In this document: positions 13,090-32,364 of the stretch, one piece after another
Numbering within the stretch: the first letter of the stretch is position 1
Layout: every line of letters begins with the position of its first letter
From: a bacterium
Lineage (GTDB): Bacteria > Zhuqueibacterota > Zhuqueibacteria > Zhuqueibacterales > Zhuqueibacteraceae
Assembly (NCBI GenBank): GCA_044869275.1
Contig: JBIOXB010000086.1
Span: 1-64,000 of the forward strand
DNA: 64,000 nt
Reading direction: 5' to 3'
Translations under genes and position numbers: made by a program
Notes under the pieces: generated by a model
Told to the model about the DNA's origin: nothing
Database searches by the model: none
The model's input: the letters and a program-made list of their open reading frames with translations, nothing else

Positions 13090-14274
13090 ATGCCCAAGAA
13101 CCTGACGCTGGGTGGTTTCAAGTCTGAAGCAGCAGCATCTATTCATTCTCAGGAAACAATAACGGAAGCAGGTAATGTAAAAGAATCTGATCTTGCCAAG
13201 ATTCCGTATCAAAATTCGAACGATGGCGATCGTGCGTTTATTCTTACCCATCCTGAGGGTTCGCTACCCAGTGAGTCACTTCATGGTCTGGCTCAAGCGA
13301 ACCAAAGTCATCAGCCTCTGGAATTGGCAGACATTGACGTTCCCAATCTGGTCGGCAAAAGCGATAAGATGCGCGCGATATGTCGCCAAATCGGCCGAGT
13401 TGCACCGACCGATTGCACCGTCTATGTTCAAGGTGAAAGTGGAACAGGTAAGGAATTGGTGGCACACGCCATCCATTTTCACAGCGTGCGGGCAAGCCGG
13501 CCCTTTGTCCGTGTGAATTGTGCGGCGTTGCCAGAAAGCTTGATCGAAAGTGAATTGTTTGGGCATGTGCGAGGCGCTTTTACCGGTGCCGTACGCAACC
13601 GTGCCGGTCGTTTTGCGCAAGCTGAAAAAGGTACGATCTTACTCGACGAAGTAGGATCATTGTCGCTGGTCAATCAAGGCAAATTGTTGCGCGTTTTGCA
13701 AGAAAGGGAATACGAACCCGTCGGCTCTTCGTTGTCGCAAAGCGCGAACGTGCGCGTGATTGCCACGGATAATCATGACCTGGGGCAAATGGTACATACC
13801 GGTACCTTCCGTGAAGATTTGTTTTTTCGGCTGAATGTTTTCACCATCTCTATGCCAGCGTTGCGTGAGCGCCTGGAAGATCTGCCCTTGCTGCTTGAGC
13901 ATTTTTTGGAGAAATATGTCCACCTGAGCCCTGCGCGGGCGCCAGATGTTTCTCGAGAAGCGCTGTTGCTTATGCAGAATTATCACTGGCCTGGCAACGT
14001 CAGGGAATTGGAAAACGCCATTCAGCGTGCTTTAATTGTTGCAACTTCCGGGCTCATCGAACCCACCAACTTGCCACTGCCCATGCCTCGCTCTGTACCG
14101 CTGCTGAGTCATGCTGGCAAAGGGCTGTGCCTGCGTGAACGGTTGCGGCGCTGCGAAAAACAGGCGATCGAAGAAGCACTCGCACGCTGCGAGGGCGTGA
14201 AAAAAAGCGCTGCGCAGTTGTTGGGCATCGACCCCAAAAACTTGAGCCATTTGTTGCGCAAGCATGGGTTGTGA
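13090..14274 (+). CDS. sigma54-dependent transcriptional activator (AAA+, Fis-type HTH) with no recognisable sensor domain
   Basis: [49 protein letters not shown]-terminal HTH. Confidence 0.93.
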   Translation: MPKNLTLGGFKSEAAASIHSQETITEAGNVKESDLAKIPYQNSNDGDRAFILTHPEGSLPSESLHGLAQANQSHQPLELADIDVPNLVGKSDKMRAICRQIGRVAPTDCTVYVQGESGTGKELVAHAIHFHSVRASRPFVRVNCAALPESLIESELFGHVRGAFTGAVRNRAGRFAQAEKGTILLDEVGSLSLVNQGKLLRVLQEREYEPVGSSLSQSANVRVIATDNHDLGQMVHTGTFREDLFFRLNVFTISMPALRERLEDLPLLLEHFLEKYVHLSPARAPDVSREALLLMQNYHWPGNVRELENAIQRALIVATSGLIEPTNLPLPMPRSVPLLSHAGKGLCLRERLRRCEKQAIEEALARCEGVKKSAAQLLGIDPKNLSHLLRKHGL

Positions 14275-14568
14275 GTGTCTGATTCCGCAAGTGATTTTTG
14301 TTCTGTGGGGCCGACGTCCAGCAAGCGCGATACCAGACCCCGTCTATGACGCCCGTCCTGCTCATTAGTTTTATGACCTCGGTCGTAAGGATTAAGATCG
14401 ACAGTAAAGCTCTTGCTGAATTGCAGTTGTCCTCCCTGCTCGAATTCTCTCCTCATACATTTTATGAGCCCGGCCGGATATTCCGATTTCAAGCCGGCCG
14501 CGGCTTTTCCCTGCCAGGTTGTTAGAATCCTTCGATTTCCGCATTGAGATTCCCGCCCTCTGGTAATG

Positions 14569-14583
14569 CGGCATGATACTTGT
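14569..14583 (+). promoter_or_regulatory. Candidate sigma54 (-24/-12) promoter of the cluster
   Basis: CGGCATG-N4-TTGT versus consensus TGGCACG-N4-TTGC; correct spacing, mismatch at the -12 C; about 110 bp upstream of 14695. Confidence 0.45.
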
Positions 14584-14694
14584 CTTATCGCAGTCAACAA
14601 AATGACACGCCGCGGAGAAGAGTGTGCAATAGCCGTATGAAAGTCCGCGCATTCTTCGCGCGTTGCTGTTTATTCCCAACCAAAGGAGTATGCC

Positions 14695-15348
14695 ATGCAT
14701 GACTTGGATCGCACCACTGCAGAATTTGAAGCGGATCATGAGTATTATGAATCCGACGGACATGAGACGGAGTACGCCGGAGAATACGCAAGCGAAGTTC
14801 TGAGCGAAGCCGATGAGATGGAATTGGCTGCCGAGCTGCTCGAAGTCGCCTCAGAAGAAGAACTCGACCGTTTCTTCGGAAAGATTTTTCGCAAAGTTGC
14901 CGGCACGGTCGGCCGTGCCATCAAATCACCGATCGGCCAGAAAATTTTGGGCGGCTTGAAGGGCATCGCCAAAAAAGCCTTGCCGATTGCAGGGGGCGCG
15001 CTGGGCAGTGTTATCGGCGGCCCGGTCGGCGGCGCCATTGGCGGTAAGCTCGGCTCGTTCGCCAGCAACTTGTTCGAAGCGGAATTTGAGGGCATGAGTT
15101 ACGAGGACCAAGAGTTTGAAGTGGCGCGTCGTCTTGTGCGTTTGAGCGCGGAGGCCGCGAGTAATGCTGCGCAAGCGCCGGCTTCGCAAAATCCACAGGT
15201 TGCGGCGAATCAAGCCATGACCGCAGCCGCGCAACGGCACGCGCCGGGACTGCTCAGACAACGCTACGGCGTCGGCGCTTATGGCGGTGGCGGCCGCAGT
15301 GGGCGCTGGGTGCGTCGCGGACGCAAGATCGTGATCTACGGTGCATGA
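14695..15348 (+). CDS. Hypothetical protein: acidic leader, cationic amphipathic/glycine-zipper core, basic C-terminus
   Basis: RBS AAGGAG; 22 D/E in the first 58 aa; residues 59-127 have 11 K/R and no D/E; GGALGSVIGGPVGGAIGGKLG. Confidence 0.85.
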   Translation: MHDLDRTTAEFEADHEYYESDGHETEYAGEYASEVLSEADEMELAAELLEVASEEELDRFFGKIFRKVAGTVGRAIKSPIGQKILGGLKGIAKKALPIAGGALGSVIGGPVGGAIGGKLGSFASNLFEAEFEGMSYEDQEFEVARRLVRLSAEAASNAAQAPASQNPQVAANQAMTAAAQRHAPGLLRQRYGVGAYGGGGRSGRWVRRGRKIVIYGA

Positions 15349-15355
15349 GTACGCC

Positions 15356-16678
15356 ATGAGCACTGTATTCACAGCGGGCCCGACTTTGGCACAAGAAGCT
15401 GCGGCCTTGCTCACGCGCTTGGATCGTCTCAAGCCTTTCGCCTTGCACGTGCCGATGGTCGTCGCCGCCGCGATTTCACCCTCAGCACAAACGGCGATCG
15501 AGCAGCACATGCTTGCGGCACGGCGCGAATTGCGCGAACGCGTGCATGAATACCTCGACTGGTTATACGGTCCGGTAAGCCGGCGCGCGCCGCCACACGA
15601 GGTTCAACGCCGGTTTACGTTACTGCGCTTGCGTTTCAATCTGGTGCTCTCGGAGTTCGATATTTTTTCGGATGCGTTGACGCAACGCGCGGAGCACGAG
15701 CACGGCGTGTGGATGGCGGGACTCGATGCTCTCGCGGCTGATGCCTTGCGCTTGCCCGGAGATTATTACGAAACACCGCCGGTGATCTGCTATCTCGATC
15801 GCGGCATCGGCGCGGCGATTCGGCGCGTGCGCACGCGTTTGCCGGGCGGCAAGAAAAATCCTGTCGCTATCATTCGCGTGCCGCGCGAGCGTATGGTAGG
15901 CAGCGGCATCGCCTCCTCGCTCGTTCACGAAGTTGGACATCAAGCGGCGGCGCTCTTGGGATTGCTCGATTCTTTGCGGCCGGAGTTGCATGAGCAAATC
16001 GAGCTTCATCCCGAAACGCAACAAGCTTGGCAACTGTGGCAGCGCTGGCTCTCTGAAATCGTCGCGGATTTTTGGTCGGTCGCAAAGCTAGGCATTGCGG
16101 CAACATTTGGGTTGATGGCAGTGGTGAGTTTGCCGGCGCCATTCATGTTCCGCGTCAGCTCGGAGGATCCGCATCCTATGCCGTGGTTCCGGATGAAAAT
16201 CAGTTGTGCCATGGGCGAGGCGCTTTATCCCCATCCGCAATGGCGAGCTCTGGCAAAATTGTGGGAAGCGCTTTATCCCACGAATAATCTCGACGAGCCG
16301 CAGCGCGAACTCCTCCTCATGCTGGAGCGCAACCTGCCGGAGTTTGCAGATTGGCTGGTCGAGCATCGCCCGGCTTCATTGCACGGCGCTACTTTGCGCG
16401 AAGCGATTGTGGAAGAAACGCGCACACCGCAACGGTTGCTAGGGCTTTATCACGCGTGGGCCAAAGACCAGCAACAATTGCGTGAAACGCCGCCCTCCTT
16501 GGCATTCGCTGCTATCGGCCAAGCGCGCGCCGAGAACCAAATCAGTCCGCGCAAGGAAAGTGATTTGCTCGCGCAATTGCTCAACCACTGGGCGCTGCAG
16601 AATGCGCTCAATACTTCGGCAGAGTGCAGCGTGCGAACCGGCGCGCGGGAGTTTGCGCCGCGTATGTTGGCGAGTTGA
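15356..16678 (+). CDS. Putative zinc metallopeptidase (HExxH, gluzincin-like)
   Basis: LVHEVGHQ followed by WLSEIVAD; start could instead be the GTG at 15341. Confidence 0.65.
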   Translation: MSTVFTAGPTLAQEAAALLTRLDRLKPFALHVPMVVAAAISPSAQTAIEQHMLAARRELRERVHEYLDWLYGPVSRRAPPHEVQRRFTLLRLRFNLVLSEFDIFSDALTQRAEHEHGVWMAGLDALAADALRLPGDYYETPPVICYLDRGIGAAIRRVRTRLPGGKKNPVAIIRVPRERMVGSGIASSLVHEVGHQAAALLGLLDSLRPELHEQIELHPETQQAWQLWQRWLSEIVADFWSVAKLGIAATFGLMAVVSLPAPFMFRVSSEDPHPMPWFRMKISCAMGEALYPHPQWRALAKLWEALYPTNNLDEPQRELLLMLERNLPEFADWLVEHRPASLHGATLREAIVEETRTPQRLLGLYHAWAKDQQQLRETPPSLAFAAIGQARAENQISPRKESDLLAQLLNHWALQNALNTSAECSVRTGAREFAPRMLAS

Positions 16679-16843
16679 GGTTTCATTTGTCGCCATTTGT
16701 ATAAAAAGTATTCTATTGAATGACATCGTTTGGGTGGAGCCGCACTCAACCACCATAGCAAATGATCTGCACTCAAATCATCATGCCGGCGTTTTTCGCA
16801 GGAAATACCAACTGCGTTTGAACATTTTTGAAGGAGACATGAC

Positions 16844-18937
16844 ATGGAAATAGTAAAGCAGCAGCAACGGTCGCAGCCGGGCAAACTCGTCGTGTTGGTC
16901 TACGCCACACATGATGCAGCCGGGGCGATTCGGACACCGATTGTCAATGCTGAGTTCACCGTATCCGCTGTCCAACCCGATAAATCGATTGCGGGCGTCA
17001 CTGGCACGGACGGCTCTTTCGCAACGGAACTGCCCACTGGGAATGGCTATAAAATAACCGGCGAAGTCTTTGGGCAGCCTTTCGAACAAGAAGCGATTGG
17101 GATCGAAGCCGGTTGCTCAACAGATGTGGAGTTCCCTATCTACATTGGGCTCTCTCTCAAATCGTACATCTTCAAAGAGGATTGCAGCCCTCCGATGGAG
17201 TGCACGAATATCACTTCGGGCAGAGTGGTGAAGCTGGTAGCGCAACATGCAATTCCTGAGGGGCGATTGGAGAGAAAAGCGGTTAGACTATCAATCTCCT
17301 CCAACGCCGGCATTGTGGAGAATTTTTCGGAGGGGGCAAACTCTGTCGAGGCTTTTTGGAACACAGCCGGCACGGAAGGACAAGTGGCGGTTGACGCAAA
17401 AATCAGTGAAGAAGGAAGCGCATTCACCGTTCTGAGAATGATTCTCAATATCCTTCGGCACCCTGTGACGGCCATCGGCGGGAACGTAACTGTCGGCATG
17501 CGCCGAACGGCTTTGCCGCCCACGAACGATCTTCTGCTCTGGGTAGTGATCAAAAAGAGCACGGATGCTCTCGCGTTCGAAAATTACAATCGCTTCATGG
17601 ACATCGTGCTGTGCGGCAAATCTCCTAGTGCCAGTGAAAGGGGCAGGATTGCCAATGCACAAAATACCTTCAATACCCTCGAGAACAAACGCTTTCTGCC
17701 CTACAATGACGTCGAAGCCTATCGTTTACTCAAAGCCGCAACCGAGGCTTTCGTGATGGTCAATTGTGGCGTCGGCCTAAAAGACTATAAAGGCCTATTC
17801 GACGAAGTTGACGTCGATGAAGTGATCAGTCGGGTCGGGATCAACCTCAATGTGGGTCAGCTTGGGAAGTTTTGGGAGGAGTACCTCGAAGACGTGAACG
17901 GCGAGAAAGATGCGACGCTGCCGTATCTCGCGCTCATTCGCGAGAAGCTCAAAGACTCTCCCATCAAACAAGCGATCTTTTCTAACGTTCTGCCGGTTTC
18001 TCTGCCGCAAGATTGCTTCGGCATCATTCGCGAAAAGCTCACCAATCCTTGCTTGCTCGAGCTGATTTGGTCGTATTGGCATGAAGAAGGCATGCTGGTG
18101 CAAACCATGAATTCCGTGGCCATGCGCTTCCAGAACATTCGCGCCAATACCAGCGGGCGCGACCCGCTTGCCAATTTGGAGATCGATCCGCTGCGGCCGC
18201 TGAACAACCTGTTCTGGGGTCACATTCAGGACGAGCAGCATCGCTTGAGCGTGACGCGCCGCGCATATGAGTATGATCATCATTACGGCATGTCACTTTA
18301 CGGCAAGGCGTTGTCGAACTTCCGTCCGGCGGACAGCCGCTCGCAGTTTTTGGAGTCATTTCACAATCTGCTGCACCTCGCCAACATCTTCTTCAAAGAA
18401 GATGATGACACCACGATGATCGCCGATGCATTTGCCGTGCTCAACGCACTCAAGGACGTTCACTTGGTGCTCTCCGAAGGCGCGCACAATCAGTTTGGCG
18501 ATTTGCCCTCGACGGCGCGCATGGAAATGATGATGCAGCAATGGCTGCTCGCGCGTCCGGAGTTCCGCGAGTTCCTGCCCACGCGCATCATGGTGGCGTA
18601 TCCCGAGCCGTGGATGGACCGCGTGGATGCCATGAAGAAGCTGCAAGGTTGGACGGATACTTCCATCCTGCACTTCCGCAATATGGCGATCTTCGGCGAG
18701 CAGATCGTGTTGTCCGTGCGCTATGGCAGTTGGAGCGAAGTCAACAATCCCGTGCAAGCGGCCAATTGGGCGCGTTTCTGGCGTGCGGAGATTCAGGGTT
18801 ACATTCACGCCTATCGCGCGGCGACGGCGGTCGATCTCACCTTGGACGTTCACGACGTGAAGGAAGCCGCGCAGCGGTATCTGCCGCCCTCGGTGCATTT
18901 GCGCAATCGCGTCTCACGACAAATGCAAAACGTTTGA
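16844..18937 (+). CDS. Large hypothetical protein (beta-rich N-terminus, helical C-terminal region)
   Basis: 697-aa ORF, RBS GAAGGAGA; N-terminus resembles carboxypeptidase-regulatory/Ig-like folds (TGTDGSF..ELPTG..Y); no signal peptide. Confidence 0.85.
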   Translation: MEIVKQQQRSQPGKLVVLVYATHDAAGAIRTPIVNAEFTVSAVQPDKSIAGVTGTDGSFATELPTGNGYKITGEVFGQPFEQEAIGIEAGCSTDVEFPIYIGLSLKSYIFKEDCSPPMECTNITSGRVVKLVAQHAIPEGRLERKAVRLSISSNAGIVENFSEGANSVEAFWNTAGTEGQVAVDAKISEEGSAFTVLRMILNILRHPVTAIGGNVTVGMRRTALPPTNDLLLWVVIKKSTDALAFENYNRFMDIVLCGKSPSASERGRIANAQNTFNTLENKRFLPYNDVEAYRLLKAATEAFVMVNCGVGLKDYKGLFDEVDVDEVISRVGINLNVGQLGKFWEEYLEDVNGEKDATLPYLALIREKLKDSPIKQAIFSNVLPVSLPQDCFGIIREKLTNPCLLELIWSYWHEEGMLVQTMNSVAMRFQNIRANTSGRDPLANLEIDPLRPLNNLFWGHIQDEQHRLSVTRRAYEYDHHYGMSLYGKALSNFRPADSRSQFLESFHNLLHLANIFFKEDDDTTMIADAFAVLNALKDVHLVLSEGAHNQFGDLPSTARMEMMMQQWLLARPEFREFLPTRIMVAYPEPWMDRVDAMKKLQGWTDTSILHFRNMAIFGEQIVLSVRYGSWSEVNNPVQAANWARFWRAEIQGYIHAYRAATAVDLTLDVHDVKEAAQRYLPPSVHLRNRVSRQMQNV

Positions 18938-18949
18938 AGCGGCTCGCCC

Positions 18950-20026
18950 GTGCTCGACTTCACCTCCGCGTTGTATCTGGGCATGCAACACGCGAGTCGC
19001 GCCTTGCGGCCTTGGCCCCAATTGACTACAGGATTGCCCGCGAGTTTAGCTGTGCCTTCGCTCGCGCGAAAGCTGGCGCAACAGTTGGCCGGGTTGCAAG
19101 GCTGTGAAAGCGCCACTCTTGCCGCTTCCACGCTGCATCTCGCTTGGGACGTGTTCGGCATGTTGGCGAAAGGCGCCATCGCGATTTACCTGGATGCCGG
19201 CGTTTATCCCATCGCGCGTTGGGGCGTGGAGCGAGCGGCAGCCGCCGGCGTGCCCGTGCGGAAGTTTGCGCATTATGAGGTGAAAGCTTTGCAACGGTAT
19301 TTGCTGCGTCATGCTTCTTCAAGGCGAATACCGGTGGTTGTAACCGACGGCCTCTGCCCCGAATGCGGTGAAGTCGCGCCGCTGGGAGCGTACCTGCAAT
19401 CCGTGCGAAGCCGACGCGGTTACGTGATTGTTGATGACACGCAGGCGCTCGGCATAGTCGGCGCTTCGCCTTCGCGTGCCGCACCGTATGGAAAGGGAGG
19501 AGGCGGTACGTTAAAATGGGCGGATCTTCTCAGTCCAAATATTTTGATGTTCAGCTCATTGGCAAAAGGTTTCGGCGTGCCGCTAGCGGTGCTGTCCGGC
19601 AGCGATGAAATGATTCGACGTTTCGAGCGCGAAAGTGAAACGCGCCGCCATTGCAGCCCGCCTTCGGTTGCCGCGCTACACGCCGCCGAGCTTGCGCTCG
19701 CGGAGAATGAAACAAACGGCGAGACCTTACGCGTGCATCTCGCGCAGCTCGTTCGACATTTTCATGCGCGACTCCATGCCGCAGGATTCTCCGTCAATGC
19801 GGGTTTATTCCCAATGCAGACTTTACAACCAAGTTATGGGATTGACGGGCGCGTGCTGCACGAACGCTTGCTGCGCAAAGGTGTGCGCACGCTTCTGCAA
19901 AGCGGGCGCAACAAGGGCGAGGCGAGAGTCAGCTTCATCCTCGGCGCGCGGCATCAGCTCAACGATATTGATCGCGCGGTGCAAGCGCTTTCTGAATGCG
20001 TGAAGGTCAATGGCAGAAAAATGTAA
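18950..20026 (+). CDS. PLP-dependent enzyme, class I/II fold, divergent BioF/alpha-oxoamine synthase-like
   Basis: LDFTSALYLG, VVTDG..G..APL, IVDDTQALG, SSLAKGFG (PLP lysine). Confidence 0.8.
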   Translation: MLDFTSALYLGMQHASRALRPWPQLTTGLPASLAVPSLARKLAQQLAGLQGCESATLAASTLHLAWDVFGMLAKGAIAIYLDAGVYPIARWGVERAAAAGVPVRKFAHYEVKALQRYLLRHASSRRIPVVVTDGLCPECGEVAPLGAYLQSVRSRRGYVIVDDTQALGIVGASPSRAAPYGKGGGGTLKWADLLSPNILMFSSLAKGFGVPLAVLSGSDEMIRRFERESETRRHCSPPSVAALHAAELALAENETNGETLRVHLAQLVRHFHARLHAAGFSVNAGLFPMQTLQPSYGIDGRVLHERLLRKGVRTLLQSGRNKGEARVSFILGARHQLNDIDRAVQALSECVKVNGRKM

Positions 20027-20128
20027 GACAGAAACATGGCGTTTGACCTCACACCAGAAAGCTGACGATGAGGGGATGAAGCCCTGCAAAGCGGGAGGAA
20101 ATTTTTCTGCCCTCCAGCTTTCTGTCTT
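20012..20128. repeat. 15-bp-period inverted repeat (GRCAGAAAAAT type)
   Basis: GGCAGAAAAAT..AAGACAGAAA ... ATTTTTCTGCC..TTTCTGTCTT; same family as 39166..39271. Confidence 0.7.
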
Positions 20129-20153
20129 TCGAATGTTTTTAGGAGAACCTGCC

Positions 20154-20873
20154 ATGTGGACCACAACCGACGGCTACGTTCTGCACCTGCCGCGCTCGGG
20201 ATTGATGAAGATTCTGGCGCGACTGCAAGACTCCGGATTGAATGAGTTGATCAAAGACAATCAAACGCATAATCTCACGCGTGAAGTCATCCACTCCGTG
20301 GGGCGGCTGGCGCAAAACGCGCGCCATAACGGGAACGTTCTGCATAACCAATCGCAGCAACGTTATGCGATGTTCACTTCGCCAACTGGTGGCGGCAAAT
20401 ATCAATTGCTCGCGCGCCCGCTGCGTATCGGCCATAGCGCAATTCTCTTTGTGCACTTCGAGCCGGAGAAAACGCCGCAAGGTTTCGCCATCGGAGAAGA
20501 GGTTAAAGTTCTGCTTACGCGCAAGCCGCGTTTTCATCCCAACGTGCTCAAAAGCACGGAAGCATTGCAGCGCGAAGCTCGCAAGATATTTTTCCGTGCC
20601 CATCCACGTCTCACCGGCAAAGTCGAAGTGTGGCATCGTGTGCCGCTCGAATGGCGGCGGCACTTTCCGAAAATGAATCCCAATCGTTTGAGCAATCTTA
20701 TTGCGCTGCAAACCAAAGCGCAGCACAGTAACGTGGCAAACATGTGGATAAATTTTCGGGAACGTTTGCAGCGCCGTGAGCATGCACCGGCGCCGAAAGA
20801 GATTATGCGATTCGTGCGCGTGGTGGATCGCGTGTTGTTCATTCCACCGGCGGTGAAAATACGCCGGCAATAA
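20154..20873 (+). CDS. Hypothetical protein with possible C-terminal HNH-like (His-Me finger) domain
   Basis: RBS AGGAGA; FFRAHPRLTGKVEVWHRVP...LSNLIAL...QHSNVANMW pattern; very basic. Confidence 0.55.
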   Translation: MWTTTDGYVLHLPRSGLMKILARLQDSGLNELIKDNQTHNLTREVIHSVGRLAQNARHNGNVLHNQSQQRYAMFTSPTGGGKYQLLARPLRIGHSAILFVHFEPEKTPQGFAIGEEVKVLLTRKPRFHPNVLKSTEALQREARKIFFRAHPRLTGKVEVWHRVPLEWRRHFPKMNPNRLSNLIALQTKAQHSNVANMWINFRERLQRREHAPAPKEIMRFVRVVDRVLFIPPAVKIRRQ

Positions 20874-20888
20874 CAAAACGGAGTTCTT

Positions 20889-23790: not shown

Positions 23791-23845
23791 CTTTGACAAG
23801 AATACTGAACCGTATCCCCAAGCACTCGTCAAGAGGAATACCATC

Positions 23846-24685
23846 ATGAATGACGAATTAGACGGCTATGAAATGTCAGACTTCGAAGATTTCGAGTTCG
23901 AAGACGAAGATGAATTTGAAGATTCCGAATTTCGTTCGCGCGGCGCAATGCCGATGCGAAGGCGCGTGCCCATGGCAGCGCGGCCGCGAATGACGCGTGC
24001 CGGTATGCGCCAACGAATGCGCCCCGGCGTGCAAAGGAGAACTCCAGGCTTGCGGTCGAGACGTATGAGAATGCTAGGCCGCCCACGAATGCGACGTCCG
24101 GGTTTGCGGCCACGCCCGCCATTGTCACGTCCTGCTTTCCGACCGGGGCCTCGTCCCGTCCCGGCAAGAGTTGTAGCAGCTAGGCCCACGCCGCTAGTCG
24201 TATCTTCAGCACAGCCGGGCCGCGTGCGATATTATGGCTATGGTTATCCGTATTATGCTATTCCATACGCATTTCCGTATTCCTATCCGCCCAGCAACGG
24301 TCATGATGATGGCACAGGTGCCGGCGCAGCTCTCGATCCCAATGTCTTGGTAGACATGGGCGCAGAACCCGGTGCAGACTCCTCGCCGGATACGGGCGCG
24401 GATTTTCCTCCCGATGGTGGAGCAGTGCAGGAACCGGCGCCGGGAGTTGACATGGGTTCGGAGCCCGGCACGGACTCGGCCGCAGATGCGAGCGCGGACT
24501 TCGCGCCGGATGACGGCGCAGGCGTGAGCGCTGATAGTGAAGCGGACGCGGGCGGCGGAGCAACCGCTCCAGATCGAAGAGATCACAGCGGGCGCAAAGC
24601 CGGCTATCGTCTCGGTTATCAACGCGGCTTCAGAGCCGGCTACGCTGCTCGACGCAGGCCATGTCGATGTGGACGTCAAAATTGA
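23846..24685 (+). CDS. Low-complexity block-charged hypothetical protein
   Basis: RBS GAGGA; E/D/F leader, R/P/M-rich block, Y/P block, two 32-aa acidic repeats (96-bp period at about 24350 and 24446), basic tail. Confidence 0.75.
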   Translation: MNDELDGYEMSDFEDFEFEDEDEFEDSEFRSRGAMPMRRRVPMAARPRMTRAGMRQRMRPGVQRRTPGLRSRRMRMLGRPRMRRPGLRPRPPLSRPAFRPGPRPVPARVVAARPTPLVVSSAQPGRVRYYGYGYPYYAIPYAFPYSYPPSNGHDDGTGAGAALDPNVLVDMGAEPGADSSPDTGADFPPDGGAVQEPAPGVDMGSEPGTDSAADASADFAPDDGAGVSADSEADAGGGATAPDRRDHSGRKAGYRLGYQRGFRAGYAARRRPCRCGRQN

Positions 24686-24772
24686 TTTCGTTTAACGTCA
24701 TCGGAGCAGACGAGAAAGCGTTTAAGTTGTTCGATTCCGAGTTGAATGATTGGAAAACAGTGAGGTCCAGCT

Positions 24773-25873
24773 ATGCCATCTTATAACGCTCAGACGACGC
24801 CAAACGGCAGTGTCACCAATGGTCATATCCGCGAGCATTGTTCCGCACACCGAGACCAGATTACTACTATCGGGCGAAATCAAGGTCAGCAAGTTCGCGT
24901 AAAAAGATTTACTCCGGACGGGGTCACGCTGCTGGATCTTGCACTCTACACCGTCATCGATCTGCACGATGAGGCGCCGGAGGTTGTCTTAGTGGGCTTC
25001 GGAGAACCTCAAGATCTGCAAGATCGCCTGGGGCTGTCCGGCACCGGCACGTTTACGGGTAAGATTGATTCTGAAGTCCCGCATCCTACCTTCACGGATA
25101 CCGAGGCGAAGAACAACAGCGAGTTCGTCGAACGCCTGACTGACAATGGCCGCCACCGGGGATTGATTGCCATTGCTCCGCACGGCGGCAATATCGAGCC
25201 ACACACCGACATGCAAGCAGAGCGCGTTCGCGAGAGGCTCGCGTCCAAGTGTGTTTCCGCGTGGTTTTGCAAGGGCTTTAAAAAAAATGGCGGCGCCTTT
25301 GATCGTTGGCACATCACCTCAACGGATATCAGCGAGGAGTCATTCCCCAAGCTGAAAACGGTGATCGGGCGCCACTTCCAATACGCAGTCGCATTCCATG
25401 GCTGGAATGAGGCTACCATCTGTATCGGTGGATCAGCGCCACGCGAGTTGAAGCAGCAAATCAAAACGAAAATCGTGAGCGCCCTCTCGGGTTCGGGAAT
25501 TGCCGTGGCCACCGATGATGAGGGAACGTGTCCCGATGGCTTCACCGGCACTGACCCGAAGAACATTGTGAACCGCCTTGGCACAAACGGCGTTCAGATT
25601 GAACAATCGATCAAGGCTCGCACCGACTACCGTATTCAAATTGCCGATGCGGTCGCCGATGTCATCGGTCCCAAGATCAGGGTTTGTACGGCGCCGGTGT
25701 TTAAGGGTTCTAGCGCCTGGGCATGCTTCTTCAAGAGCCTCGGTTACAGTGTGCTAGTGATGATGTTGATTCCGCTGGCTTGGGTATCTTCTACCAAATG
25801 CGAAATCAATCGCCTGCTGTTCCGCAGGAGGAACTGCCACAAGGGAAACACCGGTCCCTGCATCGAGTTATGA
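24773..25873 (+). CDS. Poly-gamma-glutamate hydrolase family protein (PghP/YjqB, DUF867-like)
   Basis: IAPHGGNIEPHT, WHITST, AVAFHG, NIVNRL..NGVQIEQS; RBS GAGG. Confidence 0.8.
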   Translation: MPSYNAQTTPNGSVTNGHIREHCSAHRDQITTIGRNQGQQVRVKRFTPDGVTLLDLALYTVIDLHDEAPEVVLVGFGEPQDLQDRLGLSGTGTFTGKIDSEVPHPTFTDTEAKNNSEFVERLTDNGRHRGLIAIAPHGGNIEPHTDMQAERVRERLASKCVSAWFCKGFKKNGGAFDRWHITSTDISEESFPKLKTVIGRHFQYAVAFHGWNEATICIGGSAPRELKQQIKTKIVSALSGSGIAVATDDEGTCPDGFTGTDPKNIVNRLGTNGVQIEQSIKARTDYRIQIADAVADVIGPKIRVCTAPVFKGSSAWACFFKSLGYSVLVMMLIPLAWVSSTKCEINRLLFRRRNCHKGNTGPCIEL

Positions 25874-25902
25874 TGTCGGAGTGAATTTAAGAGGAGCAAA
25901 TC

Positions 25903-27234
25903 ATGCGACGTCAATTTGAGTTTGAAGCAGAGCCGTTCGAGCTCGACCCGGAATTTGATTCGGAGTGGGAGACTTTCGATTCCGAGCTGGAGGAAGAGTG
26001 GTATGGCGAGGCGAGTCACGGCAGTGCTCCAGCACTGGCCGCGCCCAGTATTCATAACCTCAAGAACAATATCGTCAGGCTGGCGAACCAAGAGTGGTTG
26101 GCGTGGGATCGCGGCAGGAAAAAAGAATCGGATCCGAGCATACGCGCGAAATTGAGAGAATATTGGACCACGGGCGCCAGAGTGCAAGCAATATTTCGTG
26201 AGCCGAATTGGTGGTCGGCGCATCCGTGGAGCGCGGCTTTCATTTCGTGGATCATGCGAAAGGCCGGAGCAGGCAACACTTTTCGCTATGCGGCCGCGCA
26301 TGCGATTTACACTAAAGCGGCCAAAGACAATCGGCTCGCCAATAATGCGAATCCTTTCAAGGCCTTTCGCCTTAGAGAAGTACGACCGCAAGCTGGTGAT
26401 TTGGTTTGCAGGAGTCGCGCGGGCAGCGGTGCCAATTATGATAATATTCACGCGGGCCACAAAACACATTGTGATATTGTCACCGAAGTTCATCCTGGCC
26501 GTTTAACGACGATCGGAGGAAATGTCAGCAATTCGGTCTCTAAAACCGCGGTCCGTCTTGACGCGAATGGATTCATCAATCAACCCGGATACTTTGCTGT
26601 CATCAAAGTGGGCGCGCCTGCACATCCAGTCAGGACAACGACGCCGGGATTGGAACTGGAAGAGACCACACCTTTTGATACGGAATCTGAGTTTTACGAC
26701 CCTGAATTTGAGGAAGAGTCGTGGGAAGAAGTAATGGAGAGCGATTTCAGGCCAACCCCGGTTGAGCCTCATGGCGGTGGGCGGATTCAAAACAAAACGG
26801 CACCGAAGCCCTCAGACGTGGTTACCGTCTCAGGATACGGCGGCAAACGTGTTCCGCTTCATCGCCTGGCCGCCGATGCATGGCGCGCACTAGTGATTGC
26901 TGCGCGCACGGACGGCTTACAAGCACCTTTGTTGCTTCCCGTATCCGGTTTTCGCGACCCTCAACATCAACAACGGCTTTGGAACGCTGCGTTAGCGCGT
27001 TATGGTTCTGCTCAAGAAGCTCGCAAATGGGTGGCTCCGCCGGGTGGCAGCGCCCATCAATCGGGCCGGGCGATTGATTTTTATCTAGGCGGCAGCAATT
27101 CGAGCCGTAATGTCAGCCGCCTGCAAGCCACTCCCGCTTATAGATGGCTCGTTACCAACGCCGCGCGCTTCGGGTTTTATCCTTATTCGCGTGAACCATG
27201 GCATTGGGAATATAATCCCCCGGCCTCAGCTTAA
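25903..27234 (+). CDS. Acidic leader + DUF2272 (CHAP/NlpC-like) domain + acidic linker + M15B D,D-carboxypeptidase (VanY-like)
   Basis: PWSAAFISW, THCDIV, TIGGNVSNSV; SGFR..APPGGSAHQSGRAID..EPWHWEY; RBS GAGGAG. Confidence 0.82.
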   Translation: MRRQFEFEAEPFELDPEFDSEWETFDSELEEEWYGEASHGSAPALAAPSIHNLKNNIVRLANQEWLAWDRGRKKESDPSIRAKLREYWTTGARVQAIFREPNWWSAHPWSAAFISWIMRKAGAGNTFRYAAAHAIYTKAAKDNRLANNANPFKAFRLREVRPQAGDLVCRSRAGSGANYDNIHAGHKTHCDIVTEVHPGRLTTIGGNVSNSVSKTAVRLDANGFINQPGYFAVIKVGAPAHPVRTTTPGLELEETTPFDTESEFYDPEFEEESWEEVMESDFRPTPVEPHGGGRIQNKTAPKPSDVVTVSGYGGKRVPLHRLAADAWRALVIAARTDGLQAPLLLPVSGFRDPQHQQRLWNAALARYGSAQEARKWVAPPGGSAHQSGRAIDFYLGGSNSSRNVSRLQATPAYRWLVTNAARFGFYPYSREPWHWEYNPPASA

Positions 27235-27270
27235 CTCACCATCGAATGAATTGTTTTATCCGGAAGGCGA

Positions 27271-28224
27271 ATGATGAACCGACGATTCACTTCTCATTTC
27301 GAGCCGTTTCATGCCTACTCGGAATTCGACGAAACCCTTGACCTGATCGGTGAATACGATGAGGCTTCTGAGTCTTTCGCTCCCGAATTGGGTGAGAGCT
27401 GGTTGGACGAGTTGAATGAAAGTCGTGCCACCCGCTCGATCCCGCGATTGATGAAGAAGCCGGAAACCGACCCGCCAGCAGTCACGCTTTATGTCGGAAT
27501 CGATCTGAAAATTATTCACCGCGATGGAACGAAGGGGACTGCGCCCATGACCGGGATTTTTGTCCCCGCCAACTACAGGCCCAAGCCAACAGTCGATTTG
27601 ATTCTTTATCTGCACGGCCACAAAGGAGCTTATCCGGGCGCCCATATTCCTATTGACGGCTATTGGAGCAGTCGAAGACCTCCCTCTTACTTCCCATTAC
27701 GAAAGGAATTAAACGCTAGCAACAAGAATGTCATTCTCGTAGCGCCGACGTTAGGTCCAAAATCAGAGTACGGCCTTTTGACAAGACCCACGAGGTTTAA
27801 TCAATACCTGGATGAGGTGATGGCAGCGCTGAGAGCGCACGGCCCACATAAAGCTCAAGCGCAATCCCCCGTCGTCGGGAAGATTATCTTGGCCTGCCAT
27901 TCGGGCGGTGGAAGCCCGATGCTCCGGTTGGCAAAGCTGAAAGGCAGCGGCGGCTTCGCAGACAAAGTTATTGAATGCTGGGGATTTGATTGTTTGTACG
28001 GCATCGGTGTCGATGCGGCGTGGGCCAATTGGGCGAGATCGCATTCGCATGCCAAGCTTTTCATTTATTACCTCGGTTCTACGGAAAGCAACTCTAAAAA
28101 GCTTAGGGCAAAGAATCTCCACAATGTGTTTGTCGAACGGTCGAGCGCTCGCGGGCATTATTGGGTGCCGAAAGCACATTGGCGGCATCGTATCCAACAA
28201 GCGCGCTTTCTGCTGAATCGATGA
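27271..28224 (+). CDS. Acidic leader + alpha/beta hydrolase-like domain
   Basis: LYLHG, LACHSGGG, CWGFDCLY, GHYWVP; paralogous to the C-terminal domain of 20889..23708. Confidence 0.75.
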   Translation: MMNRRFTSHFEPFHAYSEFDETLDLIGEYDEASESFAPELGESWLDELNESRATRSIPRLMKKPETDPPAVTLYVGIDLKIIHRDGTKGTAPMTGIFVPANYRPKPTVDLILYLHGHKGAYPGAHIPIDGYWSSRRPPSYFPLRKELNASNKNVILVAPTLGPKSEYGLLTRPTRFNQYLDEVMAALRAHGPHKAQAQSPVVGKIILACHSGGGSPMLRLAKLKGSGGFADKVIECWGFDCLYGIGVDAAWANWARSHSHAKLFIYYLGSTESNSKKLRAKNLHNVFVERSSARGHYWVPKAHWRHRIQQARFLLNR

Positions 28225-28305
28225 ATACAGCGGAAAGCATGAGGTATAAACAACCCCGCGAATCCGTGATCCGATTCACCAAAATGTTATAAAATCGATT
28301 CATGC

Positions 28306-29760
28306 ATGATGAATATCGCCGGCCCGATCTCATACGCTCATCGCAATCGCCCTCGCTTCGTCGAGGAACTCAAAGCGTTTGTCCGTTTTCCGAGCATCAG
28401 CTCCCAACCCCGGCACGCGGTTGACGTGAAAATGTGCGCCGGGTGGTTGGCGCATCATCTGCGGAGCATCGGCATGGAAAATGTCAAAATCGCGCCCACC
28501 GTGCGCCACCCGATCGTCTGCGCAGATTGGCAATACCGGCCCGGCGGTCGAACGGTTTTGATTTATGGCCACTACGATGTGCAGCCCGCCGACCCGCACA
28601 GCCAGTGGCATTCGCCTCCGTTTGCGGCGATCGTGCACAGCGATAATCTTTATGGCCGAGGTGCATCAGATGACAAAGGGCAGATGTTCGCTCATCTCAA
28701 AGCCGTGGAATCCTACCTGCAAACGAGCGGTGAGCTGCCGGTGAACGTCAAATGCCTTTTTGAAGGCGAGGAGGAAATCGGCAGTCCGAACCTTGCGTCA
28801 TTTTTGGAACGCCATCGCCCCGCCTTTGCTGCTGATGTCGCGGTACTTTCAGACATGCCCATGCTCGCGCCCAATCGCCCGGCGATTACCTATGCGATGC
28901 GCGGTGCTCTGAGCCTGGAGCTGGAGGCATATGGGGCGAAACAAGACTTGCATTCCGGAAATTTCGGTGGCGCTGTACACAACCCTCTTGAGGCTCTTTG
29001 TGAAATGATCGGTCAACTCCATGATGCCAGCGGGCGCATAGTTATTCCTGGATTTTACGACGACGTGCGAGCATGGAGCGATGATGAGCGTGATTATATG
29101 GCACGTGCGGGGCCGACCAATGCGCAAATACTTCACGCGGCGGAAACAGAGAGCGGCTGGGGCGAGCCCGGTTATACTGCTTACGAGCGCATAACGATTC
29201 GTCCTGCACTGTCGGTGAATGGCATTGTCGGCGGTTATCAAGGCGCGGGCGGCAAAGCGGTCATTCCCGCTTACGCAATGGCCAAACTCAATTTTCGGCT
29301 TGTCCCGGATCAGAATCCCCGCAAGGTCGAGCAGCTCTTTCGTCAATACCTCGCGCGGATTACACCTCCCGCCATTCGTTGCGTCGTTCGCACGAACCTG
29401 GCTGCTCATCCGGTTTTTATCGATCGCAAACATCCCGTCATGGGCGCCGCCGCCGTTGCTTGTTCCAAAGGGTTTGGAAGACTGCCCGTATTTCTGCGGT
29501 CTGGAGGGACGATTCCAATGGCTCACACGTTCCAAAATGTGCTCGGCCTGCCGACGGTGCTGATGGGCTTTGCATTGGCGGACGATCGCATGCATGCGCC
29601 CAACGAAAAATTCCACCTGCCGAATTTTTACAACGGGATCAAGACGGCAATTTTCTTCCTGGCAGAAGTTGGCGCCATTCGACCTTCGCAAGCGCGTCGC
29701 TTACAGGAAACTAGTGCCCTCCGACCGCCTGAGGCTCGAGCAGGGAGTTGTTCCGCATGA
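28306..29760 (+). CDS. M20-family dipeptidase
   Basis: IYGHYDVQP, YGRGASDDKGQ, FEGEEEIGS, DLHSG, GGTIP, HAPNEKF. Confidence 0.93.
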   Translation: MMNIAGPISYAHRNRPRFVEELKAFVRFPSISSQPRHAVDVKMCAGWLAHHLRSIGMENVKIAPTVRHPIVCADWQYRPGGRTVLIYGHYDVQPADPHSQWHSPPFAAIVHSDNLYGRGASDDKGQMFAHLKAVESYLQTSGELPVNVKCLFEGEEEIGSPNLASFLERHRPAFAADVAVLSDMPMLAPNRPAITYAMRGALSLELEAYGAKQDLHSGNFGGAVHNPLEALCEMIGQLHDASGRIVIPGFYDDVRAWSDDERDYMARAGPTNAQILHAAETESGWGEPGYTAYERITIRPALSVNGIVGGYQGAGGKAVIPAYAMAKLNFRLVPDQNPRKVEQLFRQYLARITPPAIRCVVRTNLAAHPVFIDRKHPVMGAAAVACSKGFGRLPVFLRSGGTIPMAHTFQNVLGLPTVLMGFALADDRMHAPNEKFHLPNFYNGIKTAIFFLAEVGAIRPSQARRLQETSALRPPEARAGSCSA

Positions 29761-30563
29761 TTATCGACGCTCATTGCCACGCCGGCCCGGGAGACGGCTT
29801 CACTGGTCCATGGGATACGCGGGCCTCGCTCAAGAAATACGTACGCTGGGCCGATGAGGCCGGTATTCACCGCACCGTGCTGTGGGCTGCCCTGCACACC
29901 GATTACGCTGTCGCCAATCGTGAAGTCGGCCGCATCGTCGCCAGCAACCCGCAGCGGTTCTACGGTTTTGCCTTCGTGCATGCGGAGCGTGATCGCGGCC
30001 GCATTCGCCGCATGGTGCAAGAGGCCGTGGAGAGCTATGGTTTCTGCGGCATCAAAGTGCATCGCCGTGACGCACGCATCAGCCGCGAAATCTGCGAAAC
30101 AGCACGCGCCTTTGCTCTTCCCGTTGTGTATGATCCAATGGGCGAAGCGGCTGTGGCAGAATTGCTCGCGAGCGAGTACCCGGATGTTCCTTTTATCATT
30201 CCTCATTTAAGCAGCTTTGCGGATGATTGGGAGGCGCAACTGGCTTTTGTTGCTCATCTCGCCCGGCATCCGAACATCTACACGGACACCTCCGGTGTGC
30301 GGCGTTTCGATTTACTTGAACAGGCTGTGCGGCGGGCGGGCGCGCGCAAGATTCTCTTTGGCTCGGACGGCCCGTGGCTGCATCCCGGCGTTGAGCTCGC
30401 CAAGGTTCATGCGCTCGGCCTACCGGCTCACCAACAACGGCTGATCTTGGCTGGGAATTTTTTGCGACTCATCGCGCGCGTACAACAAAAATCGCTGATG
30501 CCCGACAGCCGAGCCGATCAACCCCTCGATGCTATGAACGGCCACGTCTCGTTTGGATCATGA
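29757..30563 (+). CDS. Amidohydrolase family protein (amidohydro_2)
   Basis: IIDAHCH, GIKVH, IIPH, YTDTS, ILFGSDGP; ATGA overlap with the M20 gene. Confidence 0.9.
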   Translation: MIIDAHCHAGPGDGFTGPWDTRASLKKYVRWADEAGIHRTVLWAALHTDYAVANREVGRIVASNPQRFYGFAFVHAERDRGRIRRMVQEAVESYGFCGIKVHRRDARISREICETARAFALPVVYDPMGEAAVAELLASEYPDVPFIIPHLSSFADDWEAQLAFVAHLARHPNIYTDTSGVRRFDLLEQAVRRAGARKILFGSDGPWLHPGVELAKVHALGLPAHQQRLILAGNFLRLIARVQQKSLMPDSRADQPLDAMNGHVSFGS

Positions 30564-30964
30564 ACTCTTGCTCTGCAATTCTGGTGTGCGATCGCGACCA
30601 GCTTTTTCGCGAAACGCTCAAAAACTTTCTGCTCGCGGCGGGTTATGCAGAAGTGGAAATCGTAACCACGGCGCGTTCGGCCCTTGCCATGCTGCGTCGC
30701 GAGCGCTTCGCCTGTGTGTTGATTGGCATGTCGCGCCCGTTCTCTTGTAGGCGCCGCCTGGCAGCCATCGCGCAACAACGGCAACCACAGGCAAAAGTCT
30801 TCATGCTCGTGGCGGCAGAAGATCACCCTCTTATTCACGATGTCTCATTTGAATATATCATCAAAGAGCACGTTTTCTCGAGTATAATGGAATTGCTCGA
30901 GGAGCCGGCGAGCGCGAAGCAGGTAGCGAAGATTGAGAAGCCTCGCGGCAAAAGGTTCTCATGA
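30560..30964 (+). CDS. Receiver-like domain protein lacking the phospho-acceptor Asp
   Basis: ILVCDRD...L..AGY.EV...A..AL..L...FACVLIGMS (G at the usual D position); ATGA overlaps on both sides. Confidence 0.6.
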
Positions 30965-32364
30965 TGCACGAGGTGGGGCAGAGACGCATGTCATTGGATC
31001 TTTATCAGCTTTTCTTTAACGGCGCCGACGAGGCAATTTTCGGCATTGAGGCCGCAACCCAGGCCATTGTTGCGGCGAATCAACAGGCAAGCCGGTGGAC
31101 CGGTTATCGTAACGATGAGCTGCTCGGGCTGCGGATGGGCGGATTGTTGCAGGCGCAGAATACTTCCGAGGTTTTGGCTCTTCTTTCTCGAGGTCACAGT
31201 GCGAACACTATACGCGACTGCAGGCTGCGCCTGCGCAAAAAGGATGGCGGGTGTTTGGCAGTAACCGCCAGCGTGAAATTGGCTGAGTTGCACCAGCAGC
31301 GTATTCTGTTTGTCATTGCGAGTGCGGACCATGCGGCCTGCGCTCACGAAAATGCTGCCACACTTGACACGGCTTTGGAAGAACAGTCCGGTTTTCCTGC
31401 GATCATCGGTCAGAGCGAGAGCATGCGCCAAGTCTGCCGGCGCATTGGTTTGGTGGCGAAGAGCGAGACCACGGTTTTGCTTCAAGGCGAGAGCGGCACG
31501 GGTAAGGAAGTGGTTGCCAATGCCGTGCACGCACATAGTTTGCGGGCGCGCGGCGCTTTCGTGAGAGTGAATTGTGCCTCGCTCAGCGAGACGTTATTGG
31601 AAAGTGAGCTCTTCGGCCACGTCAGAGGTGCTTTCACGGGCGCGATGCGCGACCGGCATGGGCGGTTCAAACAGGCGGACGGGGGCACGATCCTGTTGGA
31701 CGAGATCGGCTGCCTGTCGCTCGCCGGGCAAGCCAAGCTGCTGCGCGTGCTGCAGGAGCATGAATTCGAGCCCGTGGGCAGTTCGGTGACCACTTCCACA
31801 AATGTCCGGGTGCTGGCTTCCACCAATTCGGATCTGCAGACGGCCGTAGCTGCTGGCAAATTTCGTGAGGATCTATTCTATCGCCTGAATGTTTTTGTAA
31901 TCCATCTGCCGCCGCTGCGCGAGCGGCAGGAAGATATTCCCTTGCTCGCCCAGCATTTTTTACGCAAATGTAATCAATGCATCGGCAAAGATATCCGGGC
32001 CTGTGCGCCGGAAACACTTGAAGCTCTGATGGCCCATGACTGGCCGGGCAATGTGCGCGAGCTCGAGAACGCCATCGAACATGCGGTGATCGTCGAGAAA
32101 GGCGCGCTCATTACGCCCGCCAGCCTGCCCATGAACCTGAGCGGAGCTCGTGACCGGCAGGAAGCGTCAGGTTCCACTGCCGAGCTCGGCCTGCGAGATA
32201 TGCTCAATCTGCTGGAAAAGCAGATTTTGCTCAATACGCTCGTGCGCGCGAATGGCATCAAGAAACGCGCCGCTGCCTTGTTGCATATTGACGCCAGAAA
32301 TTTGCCCTACCTTTTGCGAAAGCATAATCTTTCCGAAATCAGCCTACCGAACGGAAGCTATTGA
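30961..32364 (+). CDS. PAS-domain sigma54-dependent transcriptional activator
   Basis: N-terminal PAS ([24 protein letters not shown]); [27 protein letters not shown]. Confidence 0.93.

Follow-up and report, generated by a model that had tools for sequence, protein, structure and literature searches.

In the holin–endolysin cassettes of phages and tailocins, in some cases with a spanin or disruptin, a muralytic enzyme without signal stands beside a membrane-active protein and both are switched together. The leaders of double-glycine bacteriocins and microcins end in G-G, G-A or G-S, and their export relies on peptidase-containing ATP-binding cassette (ABC) transporters, while the payloads of extracellular contractile injection systems (eCIS) are tagged at their N-terminus. 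Tde1, an effector of a type VI secretion system (T6SS), has an N-terminus that forms a membrane-permeabilising glycine zipper (PMC10240207). How wall hydrolases or toxins without a signal leave the cell outside phage lysis is an open question, for which the gene cluster described here offers a compact and widespread test case. The cluster occupies positions 13090-32364 of a window of 64,000 nucleotides (the whole stretch of DNA analysed; contig JBIOXB010000086.1 of assembly GCA_044869275.1, Zhuqueibacteraceae).

We find that the cluster represents a real, widespread and undescribed system, to which a function can be given by inference only. The conserved gene set, the acidic N-terminal tag, the domains of the enzymes encoded as cargo, the absent export signals and the sigma-54 promoter matches in relatives are established by observation. 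Our leading and still tentative reading, which we place somewhat below an even chance, is that the cluster is a self-contained, sigma-54-switched module for attack on the cell envelope, following holin–endolysin logic with unrelated parts.

Conservation carries the first part of this finding. Relatives of the largest cluster protein (697 residues, more than 3,700 protein clusters) mark 478 loci in the species-genome collection, and the cluster is present in at least 478 species genomes. Counts of synteny, promoters and cargo given below refer to the best 80 of these 478 loci, in which many misses fall at contig ends. The 80 loci are from Acidobacteriota, Nitrospirota, Methylomirabilota, Alpha-, Beta- and Gammaproteobacteria and one metagenome-assembled genome labelled Clostridia; the proteobacterial carriers include Janthinobacterium, Massilia, Nitrosomonas, Variovorax, Thauera and Methylomicrobium. 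The conserved order begins with one to three copies of a glycine-zipper protein, an HExxH protein, the 697-residue protein and a pyridoxal phosphate (PLP) enzyme, continues with a variable block and sometimes an M20 dipeptidase, and ends with an amidohydrolase and a sigma-54 activator. The HExxH protein is present in 78 of the 80 loci, the glycine-zipper protein and the PLP enzyme in 72 each, the activator in 65, the amidohydrolase in 59 and the M20 dipeptidase in 14. Clustering of 1281 open reading frames (ORFs) revealed no other gene family common to more than 15 of the 80 loci within 10 kilobases (kb) on either side. The module is therefore self-contained: an exporter, ATPase or immunity gene common to all loci is absent from these 10 kb.

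An earlier note on this DNA had proposed that the core order would be kept across phyla, with cargo that varies and acidic tags that are retained, and the 80 loci agree with it on each point. Chance juxtaposition is rejected on the grounds of the gene order conserved across phyla. Distribution is sparse: the cluster was found in 2 of 167 genomes of its own phylum, the window's genome counted, and in 2 of 251 genomes of a Burkholderiales sample. In Nitrosomonas mobilis (locus L045), similar ORFs at 630-1583 and 20236-21186, transposase-like by eye, flank the cluster, which suggests a mobile island.

In the window, the cluster consists of 15 ORFs, co-oriented and all on the + strand in the ORF list, as the earlier note had claimed; the two flanking sigma-54 activators are indeed paralogues (56% identity over 312 residues). 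We number the genes g01 to g15 in order from 13090 to 32364:

13090..14274, + strand: g01, sigma-54 activator with a short N-terminus, AAA+ and HTH_8 (Sigma54_activat 2e-66, HTH_8 2.2e-9)
14569..14584, + strand: imperfect -24/-12-like element, 111 nucleotides 5' of the g02 start (7/11 of the consensus)
14695..15348, + strand: g02, charge-segregated glycine-zipper protein, 217 residues (no Pfam family)
15356..16678, + strand: g03, orphan HExxH protein, putative gluzincin-type metallopeptidase, 440 residues (motif VHEVGHQ)
16844..18937, + strand: g04, orphan of 697 residues, with two N-terminal immunoglobulin (Ig)-like beta-sandwich domains and a helical C-terminal domain of ~490 residues
18950..20026, + strand: g05, divergent BioF/Kbl-like PLP enzyme (Aminotran_1_2 3e-9)
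20010..20873, + strand: g06, basic ORF of 287 residues (239 if the start is at 20154), leaderless and without family, gene status uncertain
20889..23708, + strand: g07, leader-bearing multidomain cargo with an M15-like Extensin-like_C domain and a C-H-S-x-G-G C-terminal domain (Extensin-like_C 1e-13)
23846..24685, + strand: g08, acidic leader, Arg/Pro-rich tract and aromatic-rich stretch (from sequence and charge profile)
24773..25873, + strand: g09, poly-gamma-glutamate-hydrolase-like enzyme, leaderless (Gamma_PGA_hydro 1.2e-19)
25903..27234, + strand: g10, canonical tag, DUF2272 (CHAP-like), internal acidic stretch and VanY (DUF2272 1.1e-30, VanY 1e-22)
27271..28224, + strand: g11, leader-bearing cargo with a C-H-S-G-G-G domain (no Pfam or PDB match)
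28306..29760, + strand: g12, M20 dipeptidase (NF006053 507 bits, cut-off 441)
29757..30563, + strand: g13, Amidohydro_2 enzyme, conserved core member (Amidohydro_2 5.3e-17)
30560..30964, + strand: g14, pseudo-receiver (Response_reg 28.8 bits, below the cut-off of 30.2)
30961..32364, + strand: g15, PAS-containing sigma-54 activator (Sigma54_activat 1.1e-67, PAS_9 8.8e-5)

The cargo domains named in the earlier note (Extensin-like_C, Gamma_PGA_hydro, DUF2272 and VanY) were all recovered at the values listed. Its description of g12 to g15 as an ATGA-coupled tail is correct as to the coupling, with overlaps at 29757, 30560 and 30961, and incorrect as to rank: the M20 peptidase, and above all the amidohydrolase, are not a mere tail and belong to the conserved set. 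Likewise, the claimed absence of secretion and phage machinery stands for the cluster itself, since the Pfam scan found no T6SS, ABC exporter, encapsulin or phage family among its proteins, and falls for the genome, which carries an eCIS locus on another contig. The gaps between cargo genes measure 29-137 nucleotides and hold no small ORFs, leaving no space for immunity genes. The doubtful g06 has no Pfam family and no relative in the 80 loci, and an ORF on the opposite strand overlaps it. None of 13 cluster proteins matched PADLOC, and the cluster is therefore not among the catalogued defence systems; for the three orphan core proteins g02, g03 and g04, Pfam, NCBIfam, PADLOC and PDB gave no name. 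A scan for sigma-70 promoters and terminators yielded counts not above those of shuffled sequence. Four public sequencing runs carry the cluster, all of soil metagenome DNA from one study, and no RNA run is listed.

Analysis of the N-termini reveals a feature that much of the cargo shares. In a genome-wide leader scan, which applied a fixed criterion to any start codon within the first 80 codons, an acidic/aromatic N-terminus was found in 24 of 5043 ORFs. Five of these lie in the cluster (14695, 20889, 23846, 25903 and 27271), and the cluster genes include the best leader score and four of the top five genome-wide. The earlier note had seen leaders where export signals would be expected, and we concur: four of the six genes of the cargo block bear a leader (20010/20154 and 24773 do not), and these four tagged proteins have no hydrophobic stretch at KD19 >= 1.6 and, consequently, no candidate signal peptide. 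The tag opens with M-x(1-5)-[FL]-x-F-E-x-x-P-F and continues through acidic residues that include a second F-E pair to E-R-G-R-R; it is often followed by an Arg/Pro-rich tract and by PG_binding_1 near residue 100. In the window, the canonical tag is that of g10 (25903), while 20889, 23846 and 27271 bear looser versions. The strict tag occurs at four ORFs among 206940 candidate starts of the genome, and g10 is the only one with an acidic stretch after the motif.

The motif is also present in Nitrospirota, Acidobacteriota and Beta- and Gammaproteobacteria. In its strict form it marks 18 of 61 ORFs in the variable block, compared with 8 of 659 in the flanks, counts in which kin are not independent. 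A tag profile of 45 positions, run against 1.84 billion representative proteins at E <= 0.001, produced 21 matches, every one of which starts at residue 1. All 16 scanned tag-profile proteins of at least 150 residues carry PG_binding_1; one adds DUF2272, one Lipase_3 and one a weak GIY-YIG match. Among the tag-profile proteins listed, two end in a complete glycine-zipper module.

Where a family could be assigned, the variable block is directed almost entirely at the envelope. As variable block we took the ORFs that follow the PLP gene up to the amidohydrolase or activator, and we scanned 116 of them with Pfam at E <= 1e-4. Families were assigned to 48 of the 116, and 43 of the 48 are envelope-directed: PG_binding_1 (22), Amidase_2 (10), OmpA (6), trypsin-like (6), VanY (3) and NLPC_P60 (2), with DUF2272, Muramidase, PLD and Peptidase_C1 once each. 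The remaining five family-bearing ORFs, from three Massilia loci, encode GNAT or nitroreductase proteins. Among the 68 to which no family was assigned are spurious ORFs from genomes of high GC content and a recurring class, rich in Arg and Pro, that resembles g08, whose charge profile runs from -10 to +6, +7 and +7; in Janthinobacterium loci this class lies 3' of the PLP gene.

In g10, a second acidic/aromatic stretch at residues ~250-290, with a net charge of -10 over 20 residues (260-280), separates DUF2272 from VanY, and an Acidobacteriota relative (L019:13062-15299) has these two domains in reversed order; g10 looks like a fusion of two tagged cargo units. The C-terminus of g07 (22950-23708) and g11 are paralogous and share a domain of ~250 residues at 48% identity, with a C-H-S-x-G-G motif that resembles the nucleophile elbow of hydrolases and with no Pfam or PDB relative. 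The leaderless g09 could be anchored in a membrane by its C-terminal end, which is hydrophobic (KD19 1.74 at residue 317). Several tag-bearing proteins of relatives (L004:5394-6386, L067:14060-15265, P0242, P0253, P0256 and P0261) have a terminal domain with a G-I-Y ... Y-V-G pattern, for which the GIY-YIG matches are weak (24.0 and 21.6 bits, cut-off 22.6). If this domain were a nuclease, it would point to targets within another cell.

The glycine-zipper protein g02 shares the charge logic of the cargo. Its parts follow in a fixed order: an acidic/aromatic N-terminus, a helix ending in F-L-G, a cationic glycine zipper, an acidic helix, an Ala-rich stretch and a C-terminal tail with the motif G-R-W-x-R-R-G-x-x-I. 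Net charge is -20 across the first 60 residues and then +9. The acidic N-terminus is variable, and the downstream paralogue starts with C-x-C-x-x-C instead, while the junction F60-L61-G62 is nearly invariant; L48, L88, P97, E130, G203, W205, R207 and I212 are invariant in the family alignment. The protein forms a full-length family with one to three paralogues per locus, usually two upstream copies and one downstream. Pfam gave no family, and neither Pfam nor PHROGs gave a holin family; a weak glycine-zipper match to pdsO is the only hit that Pfam and NCBIfam gave among g02-g04. Below threshold, g02 resembles Gly-zipper_Omp, Orbivirus VP5 and tape-measure proteins, and segments of phage tape-measure proteins match it weakly (phrog_167, 8.9e-5). 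Relatives contain fusions of the g02 module with PG_binding_1, Amidase_2 or OmpA proteins. Longer and tandem forms also occur in Actinomycetota, Myxococcota and Planctomycetota, and on the longer forms the match to PF23135 TRI4_N is borderline (2 of 30 family members at 0.003).

The HExxH protein g03 has no sequence match in Pfam, NCBIfam or PDB. Residues H191, E192, H195, E234 and D238 are invariant across 43 sequences, and its AlphaFold2 model is confident (predicted local distance difference test, pLDDT, 86; predicted template modelling score, pTM, 0.84). Foldseek with this model returned no PDB match at E <= 0.001, and a wide search aligned the N-terminal helical bundle only. In the ESM Atlas, g03 matches only its own unnamed clusters; Peptidase_U49 and M48, at 0.77, are a lead at most. 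Protease activity is therefore putative, being assigned from the HExxH motif. A predicted complex of g03 with g02 scored 0.00 and is evidence neither for nor against their contact.

The largest core protein, g04, has 3723 relatives among 8000 candidates scored, all of them unnamed. It is 50-60% identical across phyla over most of its length, and its C-terminal part of ~490 residues is 60% identical; all 106 invariant columns are C-terminal, from R221 on. AlphaFold2 models the N-terminus at pLDDT > 90 and leaves the conserved C-terminal domain unfolded, at pLDDT 30-50. The Ig-like N-terminus resembles DUF3823, pilins and S-layer proteins; the ESM Atlas gave nothing above 0.84 for g04, and no longer fused forms of the C-terminal domain were found.

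The PLP enzyme g05 scores 62.5 bits with the NCBIfam bioF model, far below the cut-off of 426, and matches E. coli BioF at 2.4e-16. No change of the PLP lysine K206 or of D162 occurs in 30 relatives, and the two histidines of BioF are replaced by Y86 and Q165; judged by these residues, g05 shares the fold type of BioF and is not a member of the BioF / alpha-oxoamine synthase family. Full-length copies of the amidohydrolase g13 give E values from 1e-103 to 1e-124, with values close to 1e-120 across 270 residues, a level by which g13 ranks about as conserved as a housekeeping enzyme. Its sole solved relative is an uncharacterised amidohydrolase.

The claim of a sigma-54-controlled operon holds in part. 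The two activators, rpoN in the window's genome and the promoters of relatives speak for it; the window's own canonical promoter was not found. Upstream of 14695, no canonical -24/-12 promoter is present in the window, and the sole candidate, at 14569, agrees with the consensus at 7 of 11 positions and has GT where the GC of the -12 element is expected. In relatives, a match of at least 9/11 to TGGCAC-N5-TTGCA, with GG and GC held fixed, lies within 2.6 kb 5' of the HExxH gene in 63 of 78 loci, typically directly 5' of the first g02 copy. The putative sigma-54 control of the window's copy draws on these relatives and on the imperfect local element.

The regulators differ from those of relatives. 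Where an activator adjoins the cluster in relatives (65 of the 80 loci), it stands on the opposite strand, and it has a ~130-residue N-terminal domain without Pfam family (e.g., L002:17331-18719, - strand). The window's activators are 41-43% identical to it, within the AAA core only, and by this comparison g01 and g15 are not orthologues of the conserved activator. In g14, the acceptor position holds Gly instead of Asp, as the name pseudo-receiver in the earlier note implies. The separate pseudo-receiver and the PAS-containing activator in the window, unlike the activator of relatives, indicate that the input signal has been exchanged.

Based on these features, we propose the following course of events for the envelope-attack module. 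A signal would act through the activator to switch the operon on. The glycine-zipper protein and the cargo would then be made in the cytoplasm as harmless pro-forms, in which the acidic, aromatic-rich N-terminus masks a cationic segment: the glycine zipper in g02 and, in many cargo proteins, the Arg/Pro-rich tract ahead of the peptidoglycan-binding domain. The putative peptidase g03 may unmask this segment or cut off its acidic mask; the conserved junction, at which acidic residues give way to Gly and then to basic ones, would be the site. Freed g02 could insert into the inner membrane and breach it, and the signal-less wall hydrolases, proteases and lipases would thereby gain access to the envelope. 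The outcome would be either lysis of the producer, which releases a cocktail of lytic enzymes, or leakage short of full lysis.

Several points weigh against this proposal. Mechanism and function are inferred throughout, including each of the above steps. The PLP enzyme, the amidohydrolase and the 697-residue protein would be superfluous in a simple lysis cassette, yet they are the most conserved members. We keep our confidence below even because g04, g05 and g13 have no role in it; these three proteins, and g12 with them, lack an equivalent in any lysis cassette. The membrane step is taken by a protein with no classical transmembrane segment (best KD19 1.34 against a mark of 1.6) and no holin family match, and the confident model of g03 has no detectable match to a zincin fold. 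The window lacks a canonical sigma-54 promoter. Carriers include the chemolithoautotrophs Nitrosomonas and Nitrospira, for which it is hard to see what suicide or predation would gain, and the weakly GIY-YIG-like ends of some tagged proteins fit a toxin destined for the cytoplasm of another cell better than autolysis.

The best-placed rival, which we regard as unlikely, is dedicated export without lysis. Here the tag would be a secretion signal, g04 its receptor or chaperone, g03 the tag peptidase and g02 the channel, with polymorphic antibacterial cargo aimed at competitors; the producer's outer membrane would shield it against the enzymes from outside, so that immunity genes would not be needed. 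The position of the tag at residue 1 in 21 of 21 matches, ahead of varied enzymatic domains, is the architecture of polymorphic toxins. Similarly, g04 combines a variable N-terminal domain with a nearly fixed C-terminal one, as would suit a part that contacts variable partners, and several carriers are soil bacteria with multiple cargo genes (Janthinobacterium, Massilia). However, ATPases, membrane channel families and outer-membrane components are all missing from the conserved set, and an energy source for transport is absent. Furthermore, g03, g04, g05 and g13 have no predicted membrane segment, save one hydrophobic stretch in g03. In a related reading, to which we give slightly less credence, the orphan core would read and remove the acidic tag, the glycine-zipper proteins would provide the passage and folded, wall-binding enzymes would exit without Sec, Tat, ATPase or any known secretion machine, while the PLP enzyme and the amidohydrolase would supply a small molecule or modification that this route needs.

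A pathway akin to that of bacteriocins or ribosomally synthesized and post-translationally modified peptides (RiPPs), an alternative raised in the earlier note, is improbable. The g02 paralogues would be the precursors, their leader would be cut off, the core or the C-terminal tail would be modified by g04, g05 and g13, and the hydrolases would be accessory. Several precursor-like paralogues per locus, a conserved leader helix with its nearly invariant F60-L61-G62, and an invariant C-terminal tail fit such precursors; the enzymes are conserved and g05 retains its PLP lysine. In addition, sub-threshold lantibiotic-leader and TRI4_N matches map to the leader helix of g02. On the other hand, the core peptide would measure ~140 residues, large enzymes bear the same leader logic, and the cluster and shared flanks contain no radical SAM, YcaO, LanB/C/M or C39 peptidase and no ABC exporter. 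What survives of the proposal is a leader-like helix ending in F-L-G, with no known modifying enzyme in Pfam or NCBIfam across 13090-32364.

Slightly lower still do we rate an accessory role for eCIS, in which the tagged proteins are payloads or the module is a lysis cassette that frees the particles. The window's own genome has a complete eCIS locus on contig C217 at ~21.5-50.7 kb (L085:1558-19304, L086:496-12774), with sheath, gp19 tube, Pvc16_N, AAA ATPase, gp25, Baseplate_J, gpV/GPD spike parts and DUF6519, two eCIS_core (DUF4157) proteins of 1769 and 414 residues, and a CarboxypepD_reg and Big_1 protein inside. A sigma-54 activator adjoins this locus as well; it is only 38% identical to g15 and thus not a close paralogue, and a scan of L086 that allowed up to one mismatch found no canonical sigma-54 promoter. 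Genes for sheath and tube directly precede the cluster in one Nitrospira locus. The marker Pvc16_N was found in 21 of 50 cluster-bearing genomes (50 of the 80 were searched) against 33 of 251 sampled Burkholderiales, which suggests a roughly threefold enrichment in carriers in a comparison that does not control for kinship or genome size. Against this, Pvc16_N was not found in 29 of the 50 carriers, including a complete Massilia chromosome, eCIS genes lie within 10 kb in just 1 of the 80 loci, and the genome-wide leader scan detected no acidic-tagged protein within the genome's own eCIS locus. The link to eCIS is not obligatory.

Remodelling of the cell's own envelope or wall turnover, for example under nitrogen limitation, with peptidases and amidohydrolase salvaging wall peptides, is the least probable reading to which we still give weight. 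It is in keeping with sigma-54 control and with an M20 dipeptidase and amidohydrolase conserved beside wall hydrolases; yet housekeeping wall enzymes normally have export signals, and the rare and patchy occurrence in the cluster's own phylum and in Burkholderiales, together with the transposase-like flanks in one Nitrosomonas locus, is the pattern of an accessory island. A protein compartment, the other alternative of the earlier note, is rejected, as no encapsulin, microcompartment or other shell family was found for any of the 15 genes in Pfam or NCBIfam; a shell of a new type, formed by g02 or the C-terminus of g04, is conceivable.

We note some further genes of the window outside the conserved cluster. 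Directly 3' of g15, 32361-35135 encodes a BNR/sortilin-type protein with a C-terminal sorting domain of type IX secretion (Por_Secre_tail; TIGR04183 31.8 bits, cut-off 23), in which a hydrophobic segment at residue 64 suggests that the true start lies further in. Elsewhere, a nucleotidyltransferase substrate-binding (HEPN-like) protein (6809-7213), a leucine-rich-repeat protein (7438-8367) and an AAA_21/AbiEii-type ATPase (47078-48466) are possible conflict-system genes that are unlinked to the cluster.

For follow-up, the system provides three conserved orphans, a definable N-terminal tag and a modular set of lytic enzymes, and harmless carriers in culture exist in Janthinobacterium, Massilia, Variovorax and Nitrosomonas. 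Should the tag indeed direct export or controlled release, the principle of secretion would be new, and a tool to release proteins or lyse cells on demand might follow from it. Even as a mere lysis switch, the cluster would show that bacteria assembled a holin–endolysin-like device from unrelated parts under sigma-54 control.

The earlier note could match the cluster to no named system, and we arrive at the same result: Pfam, NCBIfam, PADLOC, PHROGs, Foldseek and the literature gave no fit, and no description of the cluster was found in a literature search that did not cover subscription journals. Its resemblances to known systems are partial. With double-glycine bacteriocins it shares an acidic helical leader, a small-residue junction, a cationic, glycine-rich, membrane-active part and several paralogues per locus. 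However, the g02 junction is L-G, its products would be ~140 residues or whole enzymes, and no C39 peptidase or ABC transporter is present in the cluster or its shared flanks, the remaining genomes not having been searched. As in eCIS payloads, the cargo carries a disordered N-terminal tag, and co-occurrence in genomes exceeds the background sample; unlike for such payloads, an eCIS is adjacent in a single locus and its marker was not found in more than half of the carriers searched.

Polymorphic toxin systems (PMC3482391) likewise place a conserved N-terminal trafficking region before variable C-terminal enzymatic domains. Our cluster differs in that immunity genes next to the cargo and an N-terminal domain with a known link to secretion are both lacking, and its cargo is almost all envelope-directed. 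The glycine zipper of Tde1 belongs to the same protein as an enzymatic toxin domain and is proposed to carry that domain across the membrane (PMC10240207); here it is encoded beside such domains. In contrast to Tde1, the g02 proteins form a full-length family of their own, which has an acidic pro-region and a conserved tail at the C-terminus, and TssC of T6SS was not found in this genome (94% complete).

Lysis cassettes and holin-dependent 'type 10' secretion (PMC9527704) resemble the cluster in part. The cluster departs from them in that g02 has neither a holin family nor a classical transmembrane helix, phage or tail context is missing in 79 of the 80 loci, and its HExxH protein, 697-residue protein, PLP enzyme, amidohydrolase and activator have no counterpart there. 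Its enzymes moreover share an acidic N-terminal tag and Arg/Pro-rich tracts, and control is probably by sigma-54. Common to both are muralytic enzymes that have wall-binding domains, lack a signal and are encoded beside a co-induced, membrane-active protein; for this part the window has VanY, DUF2272 and Extensin-like_C, and relatives have Amidase_2, Muramidase and NLPC_P60.

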